Below are positions 8,325 through 29,882 of a DNA stretch of 48,003 nt, piece after piece. Both the position numbers and the translations under genes were made by a program. The stretch's first letter is position 1. Each line of letters starts with the position of its first letter. Location of the stretch: the sequence record DRR723986_15922; one strand, written 5' to 3'. Under the pieces are notes generated by a model. The model searched no databases and was not told the origin of the DNA. It was given only the letters and a program-made list of their open reading frames with translations.

Positions 8325-10934
8325 TCAAATTGAAAGTAATTCCAGGAGATCTGCTTCCAATTGAATTTGAAGTTTTCCCGAACTCAGAGACTGCCCATAC
8401 AACAAGAAAGTATCTTCAGCCCGTTCACCCAATGTCATGATTTTGGCAGTTTGTACATTGACCTTGTATTGGGCCAGCAGGCGCGTAATGGAGTAAAGCA
8501 GGCCAGTGCGGTCTGTGGCTGATACTGTCAACAAATATTGATTGCCTTTTTCATCCGGCTTTAGGTCCACCGAGGGGCGTACCGGAAAATGTCGGGATTG
8601 CCTGGACATTCTTCCGAAGACCGGTGGTTCAAGTGGTTGACGCTTGATCAGCCTGTCTTGAAGTTCCGCCTCCAACAGCGACAGGGTTTCACGGTAAAAC
8701 TCATTGTGGCTGTCGTGTTGAATCAGAAAAGAATCCAAAGCATAGCCATGAGAAGTGGTATGAATTTTTGCATCCAGAATACTGAGATTTTTGGAATCAA
8801 AGTATCCGCAAATGCGTGCAAACAAGTCCATCTCGTCCCGGGTATAAACCATCAACTCCAAGCCTTCCCCAATAGGCGACAGGCGAGCCTTGACGATGGG
8901 CTGCTCTGCATCCACTCGCCAATACAAATGCCTTGTGTGCCAGGCAATGTCGCTGGGTCCTTGCCGAAGAAAATACGACACATCGAGCTGCGCCCACAGT
9001 TTGTCCTGAACGTCATCTGAGAGTGCGTACAACCGAAGGATTCGGCGTGCCTCCGCCTGTTGTTCTGCGAGCATTTGTCGATGATTGGGTGCCTCACCTC
9101 CCAAATACTTCAATGTCAGACGGTAAAGGTCCTCCAGCAGTTTACCCTTCCATGCATTCCAAACCTTTGGACTGGTGCCGCGGATATCGGCCACTGTCAG
9201 CAAGTACAGGGCCGTCAAATTGCGTGGAGTTTTCACCAGCGCTGCAAACTCTTTCAGTACTTCCACATCCGAAAGGTCTTTTTTCTGGGCGGTGTTTGAC
9301 ATCGTCAAATGATGCTTCACCAGAAAAGCAACCAGGTCTGTGTTCTCCTGATTCAATCCATGGTCTTTACAAAACTTGCGAGCATCCACCTCACCCAAAA
9401 CACTGTGATCGCCGCCCCGGCCTTTGGCCACATCATGAAACAAAGCAGCAATGTACAAAAGCCAATGATCATCGAAATTGGCCATCAATTGACTGCAATA
9501 CGGGTACTCGTGGGCATGTTCAGCCATCGTAAATCGGCGCAAATTACGCACGACTGTCAAAATATGCTGGTCTACCGTGTAGACGTGAAACAAGTCATGC
9601 TGCATTTGCCCCACAATTTTCCGGAACACGGGTAGATATCTACCCAGCACGCTGGTCTCGTTCATACGCCGCAATTCGTGAACGATGCCCTGTGGTTGCT
9701 TGAAAAACTCGATAAACAACGCTTTGTTGACCGGGTTTTTTCTGAAATCGCTGTTGATTTTGACTCTGCTGTGCCACAACTGGCGCAACATTCTTGCACT
9801 CATACCCTTTAACCGGGGGTTCTGCTGCATCACGATGAAGGCGCGAAGCATCGCCGACGGGTTATTGGCAAACACGTCGTCATTTCTGATGTCCAGCAAG
9901 GAATCTGTTTCCTGGAACTCATCGTCGATTACCACAGGCTCAGCGTTGGCTCCGAAAATCGACAACTCGATGTTTTGAAGCAATATAGTGTTGAGTTGCA
10001 TGACTGCCTTGGCAGCCAAATAATACTGTTGCATTAGTTGTTCACTTGAACGTTTCGCAGCAGTAGGGCGGTAACCCAAAGACTCGGCCAACTGGGTTTG
10101 CACATCATAGACAAGCCTGTCTTCCCGGCGACCAGTGGTGACATGTAACTGATATCGGATTTTCTTGAGCGTTCTCTCGTTGTTTCTCAGCTTCGCCGCT
10201 TCAAATGGAGTGATCAAGCCCTTCTTGGCCATTTCAGCCCAGCTGTTGCCCAGATTGGCCGCCCGACATACCCACAATATGACGTGAAGGTCTCGAAGGC
10301 CTCCCGGGCTTTCTTTGCAGTTGGGTTCCAGGCTGTAGGGGGTTTCCTGGTATTTGGCATGGCGCTGCCTGAGTTCCAGGGTTTTCTTGCGGAAGAAGGT
10401 TTTTACCTCAAGTAACCTCTTAAGACTAGCGGATAGTGATTTGAAATTCTGCCTGTTTCCTACGAGCAGTCGAGATTCAACCAGTGCTGTTTGAACCGTA
10501 ATGTCCTTGCTGGCCTCTTCGATACATTGGTCGGGTGTTCTAACGCTATGTCCAATTTCAAGACCAATATCCCAACCAGAGCCACAAAAAGTCTCCAGCT
10601 TTTCCGTGTTCACCTCGTTGGGCTCCTGATCAATCAGGATCAACACGTCCACATCTGAGAAGGGAAACAGTTCACCTCGGCCGTAGCCACCCACAGCGAC
10701 CAAGCTGTATTCCTCTGGCATTTCAAGCGACTGCCACAAAGACACCAAAGCCTCATCCACAGAAATACAGCGTTTTTTCAGCACTGATTCAACAGCAGAG
10801 GCGGGTGTATTTTGGTCAAACGGAGTAAGCCAGTGATGTGCCTGGCTTTTTAATTGGGTTTTGATGCGGATCCGTACCGCATTGAGGTCGGGCGCGGCTG
10901 AATCATTGGCCGCAATCACTGGTTTGTTGCTCAA
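8325..10934 (-). CDS. glnD: [Protein-PII] uridylyltransferase/uridylyl-removing enzyme
   Basis: NTase motif AVGGYGRGELFPFSDVD, KESPGGLRD, HD motif (HVYTVDQH, LFHDVAKGRGGDH), two C-terminal ACT domains; TTG start 1 nt after map stop. Confidence 0.96.
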   Translation of the reverse strand: MSNKPVIAANDSAAPDLNAVRIRIKTQLKSQAHHWLTPFDQNTPASAVESVLKKRCISVDEALVSLWQSLEMPEEYSLVAVGGYGRGELFPFSDVDVLILIDQEPNEVNTEKLETFCGSGWDIGLEIGHSVRTPDQCIEEASKDITVQTALVESRLLVGNRQNFKSLSASLKRLLEVKTFFRKKTLELRQRHAKYQETPYSLEPNCKESPGGLRDLHVILWVCRAANLGNSWAEMAKKGLITPFEAAKLRNNERTLKKIRYQLHVTTGRREDRLVYDVQTQLAESLGYRPTAAKRSSEQLMQQYYLAAKAVMQLNTILLQNIELSIFGANAEPVVIDDEFQETDSLLDIRNDDVFANNPSAMLRAFIVMQQNPRLKGMSARMLRQLWHSRVKINSDFRKNPVNKALFIEFFKQPQGIVHELRRMNETSVLGRYLPVFRKIVGQMQHDLFHVYTVDQHILTVVRNLRRFTMAEHAHEYPYCSQLMANFDDHWLLYIAALFHDVAKGRGGDHSVLGEVDARKFCKDHGLNQENTDLVAFLVKHHLTMSNTAQKKDLSDVEVLKEFAALVKTPRNLTALYLLTVADIRGTSPKVWNAWKGKLLEDLYRLTLKYLGGEAPNHRQMLAEQQAEARRILRLYALSDDVQDKLWAQLDVSYFLRQGPSDIAWHTRHLYWRVDAEQPIVKARLSPIGEGLELMVYTRDEMDLFARICGYFDSKNLSILDAKIHTTSHGYALDSFLIQHDSHNEFYRETLSLLEAELQDRLIKRQPLEPPVFGRMSRQSRHFPVRPSVDLKPDEKGNQYLLTVSATDRTGLLYSITRLLAQYKVNVQTAKIMTLGERAEDTFLLYGQSLSSGKLQIQLEADLLELLSI

Positions 10935-26473: not shown

Positions 26474-27295
26474 ATGAGTTACGAACGCAACTTCATGCTT
26501 ATTCAATCGGCACAGAATGAGCGGCTAAAAACAGCCATCAAATTGCTGAATTCAAACCACACGTTACGCAACAGCGGCCTGGCCGCTGCCGAGGGATTAC
26601 ACCTCGCTGAAATACTTCTGCACCTGCCGGGTGTGCACATCGAATCGGTCTGGATTCCTCAAAGTTTGTTGAACAAGCCTGAATGGTTAACCATGTCGGC
26701 CCTGAGCGATGTGCTGGACAACGGAGAGGTGCGCTGTTTGGTGCTTAGCGATGCACTTTATTCAAAGCTTAGCAAACTGAGCACTCCCACCGGGCCAATG
26801 ATCTTTTTTAAGCCTGTGGACGCCAGCACTGCCATTGACTTAAATCGGGATATCGCCTTACTGGATGGCATTCAAGATCCAGGCAATGTGGGCACCTTGT
26901 TGCGAAATTGTGCAGCAGCAGGGGTTCACCAAGTGGCTTTGAGCAACCACAGCGCGTGGGTATGGAGTGACAAGGTGCTGCGAGCAGGCATGGGTGCCCA
27001 GTTCGGCTTGCAGCTGTATGCTGAGGATGACTTGCTGAAGGCACTTTCAGCAGCCGCACTAAAAACACCGGTGCGCGTGACCAGCCTGCATCCCAAAAGC
27101 GTTGACCTGTTCAACGCCAATTTAAGGCCTGCGGGTGTGTGGGTATTCGGCAGCGAGGGGCAGGGCGTTAGTCAAGCCTGGCTGGACCGCGCCAGCGAAC
27201 ACATTCGAATTCCACAAAGCCAGACCATTGAAAGCCTGAATGTAGGCAGCAGCAGCGCAGTGTGTTTGTTTGAACAATTCAGGCAAAGGCGGTAA
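26474..27295 (+). CDS. TrmH/SpoU family RNA methyltransferase
   Basis: IQDPGNVGTLLR, VFGSEGQG, ESLNV. Confidence 0.92.
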   Translation: MSYERNFMLIQSAQNERLKTAIKLLNSNHTLRNSGLAAAEGLHLAEILLHLPGVHIESVWIPQSLLNKPEWLTMSALSDVLDNGEVRCLVLSDALYSKLSKLSTPTGPMIFFKPVDASTAIDLNRDIALLDGIQDPGNVGTLLRNCAAAGVHQVALSNHSAWVWSDKVLRAGMGAQFGLQLYAEDDLLKALSAAALKTPVRVTSLHPKSVDLFNANLRPAGVWVFGSEGQGVSQAWLDRASEHIRIPQSQTIESLNVGSSSAVCLFEQFRQRR

Positions 27296-27306
27296 AATCA
27301 AATACA

Positions 27307-27322
27307 CTGTACACTTAAACAG
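27307..27322. promoter_or_regulatory. LexA (SOS) box upstream of the photolyase gene
   Basis: CTGT-acacttaa-ACAG (CTGT-N8-ACAG), extended palindrome caCTGT...ACAGtg, in the 47-bp intergenic gap 20 nt before the ATG. Confidence 0.8.
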
Positions 27323-27342
27323 TGGTATCTGGATTTCGCTGC

Positions 27343-29022
27343 ATGCACCTGCACCTTGTTTGGCTGAAAAAAGACCTACGCCTGAGCGACCATGCTCCCT
27401 GGCATGCGGCGATCGCATCCGCCAGGGACAATCAGGGTTGCGTCGCCGCCTTGTATTGCCTTGAACCCAAACTGATCAAGCAGCCCGACAGTGCCCCACA
27501 ACATTTTGAGTTTGCCCGTGAGTGTCTACAGGAATTGGCGGAGCAAATGCCAGAGCACGTGCCTTTGCTGCTGGCCAAAGCCAATGCCACTGTGGCCTTG
27601 CAAACACTGACCTTGTGCTACGAGCGAATCACCATTTACAGCCATGAGGAAACAGGTAATTGGGCCAGCTATGAGCGTGACAAGGAAGTGAGGGTCTGGT
27701 GTGAACGCGAGTCGATACCTTGGTTTGAATTCCAAAACAATGCAGTGATACGCAGGCTAAAAAATCGCGATGAATGGGGTAAGTTGTGGCTGGACACCAT
27801 GCGTAAACCCCTGCTGCCGGTACCGGATTTTTCAGAATTACCCCAAGTCACCTGGTTTGACTTTCCACAACAATTGCAAGAAAAGCTGGAAATCAACGGA
27901 TTGCCTTGTGTGCAGCTAAACCGTTCACTTTGGCCGCAATGGGCACAATTTGTACATTTTTACCCGAAACATTTAACTGACAAGGCTTTACGTCAACGTG
28001 GTGGGCGCCAACAGGCACAGGCCTGTTTGAAGGAGTTTTTGAATGAACGCGGAATGAACTACCGTTTTGAGATGTCCAGCCCCTTGAGCGCTGAGTCAGC
28101 CTGCTCACGCCTGTCGCCTTACCTTGCTTTTGGTGTCATTTCCATTCGGGAAGTGCTGGAGGCATTGGGCTTGGCCCGTCAGCAACTGGCAGAAAGCGGA
28201 TTGTCACCCAAAGCACAAACACAGTGGAAGCAATCCCTGAAATCGTTCGAGAGCCGTTTGCATTGGCATTGCCACTTCATTCAAAAACTGGAAAGCGAAC
28301 CCGAGCTTGAATTTAGATCAGCCCATCGTGGTTTGAATGCCATGCGCAATTTCGCCGAGCTTGGCCCGGAAGAAAATCAAAAAGCACTGGCCTGGATAGA
28401 AGGGCGTACCGGTTTTCCCATGGTGGATGCCTGCATGCGAATGTTGCGCGCCACGGGTTGGGTTAACTTCCGCATGCGTGCCATGCTTGTGGCATTTGCG
28501 TCTTACCAACTCTGGCTGGATTGGCGACACACGGCGCCCATGTTGGCGCGTGAATTTCTCGACTACGAGCCTGGCATTCACTACCCGCAATTTCAAATGC
28601 AGTCGGGCGTCACAGGTATTAACACCTTGCGCATTTACAACCCGGTGAAACAAGCCAAAGATCATGATCCCAAAGGAGTGTTCATCAGGCGCTGGATACC
28701 AGAGCTGAAAAACATCCCCGATCCATGGATAGGGGAGCCCTGGAATACGCCACAACTCATTCAGCAAGAGTGCGGATGCGTGATTGGGGTGGACTACCCG
28801 TGGCCTGTAGTGGATCCCGATTCAGCCATTTCGAAAGCGCGGTCCAAAATTACCGAATTCAGGCACCGCAAAGGTTTTGTGGAGGAATCACAGCGTGTTT
28901 ATGAAAAACACGGCTCCAGAAACCCCAACCGCAATGGCAGTGTCACCCCTAAACGGCGCAGCCAGAAGAAACGATCCGACGAGTCAATGATCGAGACCGA
29001 TACACAGCAAAGTTTATTTTGA
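27343..29022 (+). CDS. Cryptochrome/DNA photolyase family FAD-binding protein
   Basis: VWLKKDLRLSDH, SRLSPYLAFG, GRTGFPMVDACMR, GWVNFRMRAM, FLDYEPGIH, GINTLRIYNPVKQ..DHDP.G.FIRRWIPEL; ATG 27343 preferred to GTG 27322. Confidence 0.93.
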   Translation: MHLHLVWLKKDLRLSDHAPWHAAIASARDNQGCVAALYCLEPKLIKQPDSAPQHFEFARECLQELAEQMPEHVPLLLAKANATVALQTLTLCYERITIYSHEETGNWASYERDKEVRVWCERESIPWFEFQNNAVIRRLKNRDEWGKLWLDTMRKPLLPVPDFSELPQVTWFDFPQQLQEKLEINGLPCVQLNRSLWPQWAQFVHFYPKHLTDKALRQRGGRQQAQACLKEFLNERGMNYRFEMSSPLSAESACSRLSPYLAFGVISIREVLEALGLARQQLAESGLSPKAQTQWKQSLKSFESRLHWHCHFIQKLESEPELEFRSAHRGLNAMRNFAELGPEENQKALAWIEGRTGFPMVDACMRMLRATGWVNFRMRAMLVAFASYQLWLDWRHTAPMLAREFLDYEPGIHYPQFQMQSGVTGINTLRIYNPVKQAKDHDPKGVFIRRWIPELKNIPDPWIGEPWNTPQLIQQECGCVIGVDYPWPVVDPDSAISKARSKITEFRHRKGFVEESQRVYEKHGSRNPNRNGSVTPKRRSQKKRSDESMIETDTQQSLF

Positions 29023-29045: not shown

Positions 29046-29882
29046 TCAGTAAATTGGGGAGCCCAAATTCAATTGTTGCAGAATCGTGGTCGAGATTTCT
29101 TCAATGGATTTGCTGGTCGAGCTAAGCCAGCTGATTCCCTCTCGGCGCATCATGAACTCGGCTGCCCGGATTTCTTGCCTGCAATTTTCAAGCGACGCAT
29201 ACTTGCTGCCTGGACGTCGCTCGTTGCGTATCTCGCTCAAGCGTTCTGGTGATATTGAAAGTCCAAAAATCTTGTCCTTGAACGGGGGTAGGGCCGCTGG
29301 CAACTCTCCACGCTCGAAGTCCTCTGGAATCAACGGGTAATTGGCGGCCTTGATGCCATATTGCATTGCCAGATAAAGGCTGGTTGGTGTTTTACCAGAC
29401 CGGGAAACACCCACCAAAATGACATCGGCTGCCTGTAGGTCCTTGTGAGTTTGACCATCGTCATGCGCCAGTGTGTAGTTAATCGCTTCAATGCGGTTTT
29501 TGTACTGCTCGTTGTCAGCAATGGTGTGCGAACGGCCAATGCGATGTGTGCTTTTGATGTCCAGTTCTTTTTCCAAGGGTTCCACAAAGGTGAGGAACAA
29601 ATCCATGAACACACCATCAGCCTGTTTCACGACGTCGTTGATGACCGTGTTCACCAGGGTGCTGAACACGATGGGTTTTTGGCCATCGTATTTCGCAATG
29701 TCATTGATCTTTTGTCGGGCTGAAATTGCCTTCACTTCTGAATCAATAAAGGGAATGCGAATTTGCTTGAAACGTATGCCTTCAAATTGGGACAACACCG
29801 AGTGGCCGAGGGTTTCCGCCGTAATGCCAGTGCCGTCTGACACAAAAACCACGGTGCGCTCCTGGCTTACATTTTCTGACAT
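29046..29882 (-). CDS. ppsR: PEP synthase regulatory protein (kinase/pyrophosphorylase)
   Basis: [37 protein letters not shown]; divergent from ppsA. Confidence 0.95.

Follow-up and report, generated by a model that had tools for sequence, protein, structure and literature searches.

Within the photolyase-cryptochrome family (CPF), the described branch closest to the gene considered here is NewCRY, a subfamily reported to make up ~8% of the superfamily and represented by its type member VcCry2 (VC1392) of Vibrio cholerae (Emmerich et al., 2020, PMC7736829). As the passages of that paper on the subject describe them, NewCRY proteins are two-domain CPF proteins formerly annotated as cyclobutane pyrimidine dimer (CPD) photolyases; they lack residues essential for light-driven repair, with loss of the active-site Glu and Asn (E274 and N341 of the Escherichia coli photolyase Phr) as the diagnostic feature, and occur in genomes that also encode a class I or (6-4) photolyase. 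From the first purification onward no function has been assigned to proteins of the VcCry2 type, and the branch is large. Here we consider a gene of this kind on a 48,003-nucleotide stretch of DNA (sequence record DRR723986_15922; 'the window' below is this whole stretch), whose source is a Limnobacter (Burkholderiales), a freshwater or marine bacterium, the closest homologues bearing Limnobacter names. Its product shares the above features with NewCRY and carries in addition a C-terminal tail tipped by a peptide of the type that docks on the sliding clamp, DnaN, and the gene is preceded by a palindrome of the LexA-operator type. In the text of PMC7736829 the word 'clamp' occurs nowhere, and its passages on the subject hold no C-terminal motif; the tail is the feature added here. 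NewCRY proteins have been proposed to act in signalling (PMC7736829), whereas the tail of the Limnobacter protein argues for work on DNA. What is new is that a docking motif and an operator, each familiar from elsewhere, meet on an orphan branch of this family.

Two further groups of systems need to be compared with the locus. The clamp clients of E. coli include Pol II, with ...QLGLF, Pol IV, with ...QLVLGL, Hda (QLSLPL) and MutS (QMSLL). The consensus forms QL[S/D]LF and QLxLxL are said to have been put forward by Dalrymple and colleagues in 2001. The protein considered here and its relatives resemble these clients in that a Q-x-x-L-F or Q-L-x-L-x-L peptide ends a flexible region and is conserved while the linker before it drifts; the carrier differs, being a flavoprotein of the photolyase family, and the literature searched showed no protein of this class as a clamp client. 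The palindrome agrees with the LexA regulon of beta- and gammaproteobacteria in having the operator form CTGT-N8-ACAG, which also stands before the lexA and recA genes of this organism, and departs from it in that the link to a CPF gene is restricted to part of one genus. A full-text search, with subscription journals outside its scope, found no paper in which a clamp-binding motif is tied to a photolyase or cryptochrome and none on a LexA-boxed gene of this family; one paper that it turned up assigns, in its passages on them, no SOS box to its photolyase genes.

Both CPF domains, PF00875 and PF03441, are matched by the protein, and Foldseek returned CPF structures only (E ~1e-23, TM 0.67-0.79, none closer than 20-23% identity), the best solved structures being 20-27% identical to it and drawn from all CPF classes alike. 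The scores against the models of individual classes fall far below their cut-offs, with 153.8 bits vs 506 for class I CPD photolyase (PRK10674), 142.6 vs 317 for DASH cryptochrome/single-stranded DNA (ssDNA) photolyase (TIGR02765), 143 vs 885 for the 8-HDF-type photolyase and 136.5 vs 604 for plant cryptochrome, and a protein atlas look-up gave generic photolyase clusters only. An AlphaFold2 model based on 71 clade members is confident to about residue 530 (predicted local distance difference test, pLDDT, 93.7; predicted template-modelling score, pTM, 0.91).

The protein was aligned to the product of E. coli phr (K-12 record) by BLASTP and by hhalign with a 71-sequence profile; Phr residues are given in literature numbering, which is the Met-included alignment number minus one. 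At 27% identity the protein shares the fold of the class I enzyme (PDB 1DNP) and keeps the equivalents of W277, R342 and W359 (here W394). The residues by which a class I photolyase contacts the CPD are lost: in the profile alignment R305 takes the place of E274, F376 that of N341, A380 that of M345 and F417 that of W384, and the flavin-N5 partner N378 is replaced by H413, all five substitutions lying in the pocket of the FAD-binding domain. Of the Trp triad for photoreduction (W382-W359-W306), W359 is the sole member kept, since W382 falls within a two-residue deletion and W306 aligns with a non-Trp position. R305 is invariant in 71 of 71 diverse clade members, as is H413, and conservation reaches 90% or more at F376 and A380, so that the replacements are not products of decay, and such invariance argues for a specific ligand or chemistry. 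By the published diagnostic residues, rather than by direct comparison with VcCry2, the protein belongs to the NewCRY branch or adjoins it, and by the same residues it is not a canonical photolyase. The first-pass annotation of the window had likened the protein to a divergent, Vibrio Cry2-like clade, a comparison that agrees with the published description of NewCRY and with both diagnostic residue losses.

As a stand-in for the source genome we used genome G001, with which 90% of sampled words are shared and which encodes the same photolyase-family protein, the tail differing visibly at a single residue ahead of the motif (Ile for Thr). On its contig C2 (locus L003) lies a canonical class I-type photolyase of 500 aa, tail-less and with every classical residue in place, which scores 387.5 bits against PRK10674 (cut-off 506). 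A third, divergent CPF paralogue of ~459 aa, again without a tail, lies on contig C51 (locus L002); over the FAD domain it shares 45% identity with the query.

The C-terminus of the protein reads ...EKHGSRNPNRNGSVTPKRRSQKKRSDESMIETDTQQSLF-stop (its end also being written as ...HGSRNPNRNGSVTPKRRSQKKRSDESMIETDTQQSLF), the last five residues, QQSLF (555-559), and the stop being encoded by CAG CAA AGT TTA TTT TGA (29005-29022); Phr of E. coli has no such tail. The form is that of a clamp ligand, Q-x-[SD]-L-F or Q-L-x-L-x-[LF] in a flexible terminal region. Of the 121 nearest homologues (90%-identity clusters, sharing 46-88% identity with the query), 119 match QxxLF or QxxLx[LFWM] within their final 16 residues; 200 shuffles of each protein's last 60 residues gave a mean of 0.8 and a maximum of 4. 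The same procedure gave an expectation of 1.2 and a maximum of 6 for 150 distant representatives (50%-identity clusters from an exhaustive HMMER search), 61 of which carry the motif, and the pattern is found in 2% of internal 16-residue windows. In a control set of 30 class I photolyases from the same order the loose pattern occurs in three, each time within the last helix of the fold and never on a linker. Among 80 named loci from species-representative genomes, 78 were complete, the two cut at the 3' end being dropped; 57 of the 62 labelled proteobacterial have the motif, and four of the five that miss it end in QxSLL or QQELL.

Orthologues alternate between pentapeptide (QQSLF 23, QGSLF 16, QLDLF 12, QLSLF 10) and hexapeptide (QLSLGL 13, QLSLGF 6) shapes, both familiar from clamp ligands, and in 146 of 179 motif-bearing proteins no more than 0-2 residues separate the motif from the C-terminus, acidic residues often following it. 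Across 22 Limnobacter genomes Q1, L4 and F5 hold without exception and S3 in 21, the Ser being written with codons of both families (AGT, AGC, TCG, TCC) and the Gln, Leu and Phe codons varying synonymously; in contigs with a metatranscriptome label the Leu codon, too, is changed synonymously. The linker before it is unalignable even within Limnobacter and shows no conservation among orthologues, and the motif is thus conserved against a diverging background. The folded core closes with the HGSRNPNRNG segment (family form HGSRNPxREG), in which G524, S525, R526 and R530 are invariant in the family alignment and where pLDDT drops from 95 to 79, with values of 51-61 over residues 531-559. In G001 the single Y-family polymerase found, a DinB-like protein (contig C6, locus L217), ends in ...QLFLDLEDAP and so provides an in-genome reference for a clamp motif, QLFLDL, and DnaN retains its ...MPMRI end. 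The terminal QxxLF that the first-pass annotation singled out is, on these counts, a conserved clamp-type short linear motif across the proteobacterial members of the clade, and we consider it likely that the tail is a true clamp hook.

A separate observation concerns metagenomic clade members of greater length (580-750 aa), which end in zinc fingers or a UBA-like domain where bacterial proteins have the tail. The fingers follow the pattern W-x-C-x2-C-T-F-x-N...C-x2-C and score 17-23 bits against Pfam Zn_ribbon_RanBP, under the cut-off of 27. RanBP2-type fingers are seen in P0150, P0192, P0202, P0219, P0222 and P0224 and a UBA-like domain in P0270, and ends of finger or UBA type were judged by eye in P0188, P0232, P0250 and P0256. 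Their Thr-Phe signature is that of the ubiquitin-binding NZF fingers, and these relatives may be eukaryotic.

The palindrome upstream of the gene (Table 1) starts 9 nt past the -10 hexamer of a sigma-70-like promoter and stops 21 nt short of the ATG; it thus lies over the expected transcription start, a placement that suits a repressor. That the organism uses an operator of the E. coli type follows from its other promoter-proximal boxes. The one G001 lexA that exceeds the family cut-off has the box CTGTATATAATCACAG 24 nt upstream, recA has an extended ACTGT...ACAGT box 55 nt upstream, and further extended boxes stand, promoter-proximal, before a ribonucleotide reductase beta gene (nrdB-like), a YghX-like hydrolase gene and an integrase-like gene. 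The photolyase-family gene is present in 22 of 26 Limnobacter genomes, with a readable upstream region in 20; in these the box, at -32 to -38, is exact in 12 and has one mismatch in two. Its half-sites hold while the spacer varies (ACACTTAA, ATACTTGA, ACAATTAA, AAACTTGA, TTTAATAC), and at two loci, L149 and L150, the box is kept in intergenic DNA that is otherwise unalignable. In a maximum-likelihood tree the carriers of the box group together in a single clade (17 rows, support 81/81), below which five box-less species branch. The first-pass reading of the palindrome as a LexA-type box gains from the boxes of the same type before lexA and recA and from its conservation in related species, and in our judgement it is probably a working LexA operator.

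Several other palindromes were seen along the way. The window holds a second CTGT-N8-ACAG (CTGTCAGCAAGTACAG, 9194-9209), which in the G001 copy falls within an open frame of 794 codons, has a spacer G+C of 4/8 and is probably a chance match. The extended boxes before the ribonucleotide reductase beta, YghX-like hydrolase and integrase-like genes make up, with two more of the kind, the set at G001 loci L047, L024, L030, L044 and L014, and on contig C45 (locus L041, ~2001-2016) an ACTGT-N8-ACAGT abuts what appears by eye to be the 3' end of a tRNA. Betaproteobacteria bacterium MOLA814 (L079) has a one-mismatch box, CTGTGAACGTGAACGG, 28 nt before the start, at a distance as in Limnobacter, which may be due to chance or may be an independent degenerate operator. 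A reading of the palindrome before the photolyase-family gene as a terminator hairpin of the minus strand was rejected, given that no minus-strand gene ends there and no plus-strand T-run follows.

Let us then consider how these parts might work together. The protein is a two-domain CPF flavoprotein of the NewCRY or an adjoining branch, with a lesion-binding pocket unlike that of CPD photolyases; from its folded core a floppy, basic and fast-evolving linker extends to a conserved Q-x-S/D-L-F peptide (QLxLxL/F in relatives). This peptide would tether the protein to DnaN rings on DNA, and the tethered protein would act on DNA at or behind sites of replication or repair rather than as a free signalling cryptochrome. 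In one Limnobacter subclade the promoter appears to have gained a LexA operator over the transcription start, and the protein would there be made upon DNA damage, through relief of LexA repression. We lean toward this combination, a DNA-acting flavoprotein tethered to DnaN by its tail and derepressed by damage in this Limnobacter clade. As to the substrate, we would guess at a DNA lesion of UV or photo-oxidative origin that is not the standard duplex CPD. The conserved tail of the clamp-docking type offers a first testable clue to the function of the orphan NewCRY branch, and, if the proposal is true, a light-dependent flavoprotein joins the clients of the sliding clamp; the LexA box of Limnobacter would be a clean natural case of regulatory rewiring toward the DNA-damage response.

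A far bolder extension, which we regard as a long shot, is that the whole NewCRY branch consists of clamp-tethered DNA flavoproteins instead of free signalling cryptochromes, that light- or redox-dependent release of the tail makes clamp docking conditional, and that the zinc-finger and UBA-like relatives reach the eukaryotic clamp through ubiquitin. Some PCNA-directed repair factors reach the eukaryotic clamp in this way. If such an extension were true, a photoreceptor or enzyme would be talking directly to the replisome.

A number of observations weigh against the clamp-tethered, damage-induced flavoprotein proposed above, or at least limit its reach. Signalling alone has been proposed as feasible for NewCRY in the relevant passages of PMC7736829. 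The motif is absent from ~60% of the 150 distant representatives and from 12 of the 16 named loci labelled Planctomycetota, Verrucomicrobiota, Gemmatimonadales and others, most of the motif-less loci of these other phyla terminating soon after HGSR; since so many clade members lack it, the core function does not need the motif. Its position 2 is Q in the protein considered here, the commonest residue being L. The promoter match alone is not significant (three promoter-like sites in the region vs 1.9 expected), nor is the count of CTGT-N8-ACAG in the window (2 vs 0.69 expected, 14 of 100 shuffles reaching 2). Throughout G001 this pattern occurs 50 times, twice the 26 of a reversed-pattern control, so that most perfect boxes there are due to chance, and position and conservation must decide. 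Of the 20 readable Limnobacter upstream regions, five have nothing at the position of the box, and L148 has what by eye is a remnant with two mismatches. Outside Limnobacter no exact box was found in 177 kb of upstream flanks (up to 2.5 kb each) of 76 loci, and one-mismatch boxes within 200 nt are not commoner there (3 of 76 loci) than in a coding control (5 of 76). Absent outside the genus and from part of it, the box cannot stand for a family trait of SOS control; acquisition by this lineage is probable, and the co-occurrence of tail and LexA box that was looked for at the suggestion of the first-pass annotation is negative at the family level, the box being confined to one subclade of one genus. 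The upstream neighbours at 77 homologous loci are heterogeneous (lipocalin-like 7, second photolyase-family 6, SpoU methylase 5, Band 7 3) and have a flavour of light or membrane stress, with no replication or repair gene among them.

Other explanations of the same features have to be weighed. The first-pass annotation took the protein for a genuine photolyase reversing CPD or (6-4) dimers, perhaps preferring ssDNA, which would be induced by the SOS response and, recruited to clamps where forks have stalled, would compete with translesion synthesis in an error-free manner. We find this doubtful, even though the CPF fold with its intact FAD domain, the tail and the LexA-type box are all as it would have them, and VcCry2 is called an ssDNA photolyase in excerpts of the secondary literature. 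The equivalents of E274, N341, M345, W384 and W382 are replaced or deleted, and simple reversal of CPD or (6-4) dimers becomes less likely because different, invariant residues make up the pocket and the genome already has a canonical class I enzyme; NewCRY as a whole is described as lacking what light-driven repair needs (Emmerich et al., 2020, PMC7736829), and a V. cholerae cry2 mutant is described, in the account consulted, as having no blue-light phenotype. The supposed competition with translesion synthesis is likewise unsupported, as G001 shows DinB alone and no perfect LexA box was found near its gene. What stands of the first-pass interpretation are the clamp-type motif, the type of the LexA box and the Cry2-like clade; the general co-occurrence of the two signals and, in the form proposed, the reversal of UV dimers are not supported.

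The two signals themselves might also be read differently. The C-terminal tails of cryptochromes are regulatory elements. The terminal peptide might be an intramolecular lid, much as the tail of Drosophila CRY occupies the lesion pocket, or else a contact site for some other partner or a tag for degradation, and many members of the clade function without the motif. Yet the alternation between QxSLF and QLxLxL/F, the terminal or near-terminal site followed by acidic residues and the long, disordered, basic linker make up the signature of a clamp motif, the organism's own DinB carries QLFLDL, and the AlphaFold2 model docks the tail nowhere with confidence (pLDDT ~51), all of which makes a peptide with no part in clamp binding quite improbable. 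It seems unlikely, too, that the palindrome is silent and the gene constitutive or under the control of light or oxidative stress, like NewCRY genes elsewhere. A chance origin would accord with a frequency of perfect boxes in G001 close to that predicted from base composition, and control by light with the blue-light induction reported, in excerpt, for VcCry2; against this, the half-sites are kept across the 17-row clade while spacer and flanks change, the extended ACTGT...ACAGT form matches the boxes of recA, the nrdB-like gene and other promoter-proximal sites in G001, and the box covers the predicted start site. The reading of a LexA operator before a gene for a clamp-tethered flavoprotein hence seems to us the better one for this clade.

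Table 1. Coordinates of the photolyase-family gene, its parts and its surroundings in the window
Feature	Position	Strand	Basis or remark
SpoU/TrmH-family RNA methyltransferase gene, upstream neighbour	26474..27295	+	open reading frame; orthologous neighbour L054 matches PF00588
Sigma-70-like promoter TTGAAC-17-TAAAAT (9/12)	27270..27298	+	consensus match only
LexA-box-type palindrome CTGTACACTTAAACAG	27307..27322		extended ACTGT-N8-ACAGT 27306-27323
Cryptochrome/photolyase-family gene (P0001), 559 aa, NewCRY-like	27343..29022	+	direct read; stop TGA 29020-29022
N-terminal photolyase alpha/beta (antenna) domain, residues 5-135	27355..27747	+	PF00875, E 1.4e-14
FAD-binding domain, residues 302-503	28246..28851	+	PF03441, E 5.6e-66
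HGSRNPNRNG segment, residues 523-532, end of folded core	28909..28938	+	conserved family-wide
Lys/Arg-rich hypervariable linker, residues 533-554	28939..29004	+	predicted disordered
Terminal QQSLF, residues 555-559, candidate beta-clamp-binding motif	29005..29019	+	stop 29020-29022
ppsR, convergent downstream neighbour	29046..29882	-	NF049928, 428 bits vs cut-off 350

The arrangement noted in the first-pass annotation, with the gene, a perfect CTGT-N8-ACAG in the 47-bp gap that separates its ATG from the SpoU/TrmH-family gene, and a tail ending in QQSLF-stop, was borne out. The ATG at 27343 was taken as the start, giving MHLHLVWLKK..., the N-terminus common to orthologues; a mechanical list of open reading frames places the start at a GTG at 27322. 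The last codons of the SpoU/TrmH-family gene contain the promoter-like site of the photolyase-family gene, the -10 hexamer TAAAAT overlapping its stop codon, and its product scores below every equivalog cut-off of the NCBIfam RlmB/TrmH models. In four RNA-labelled runs the stretch is present as contigs of 3.7 to 28 kb, each spanning all the genes.

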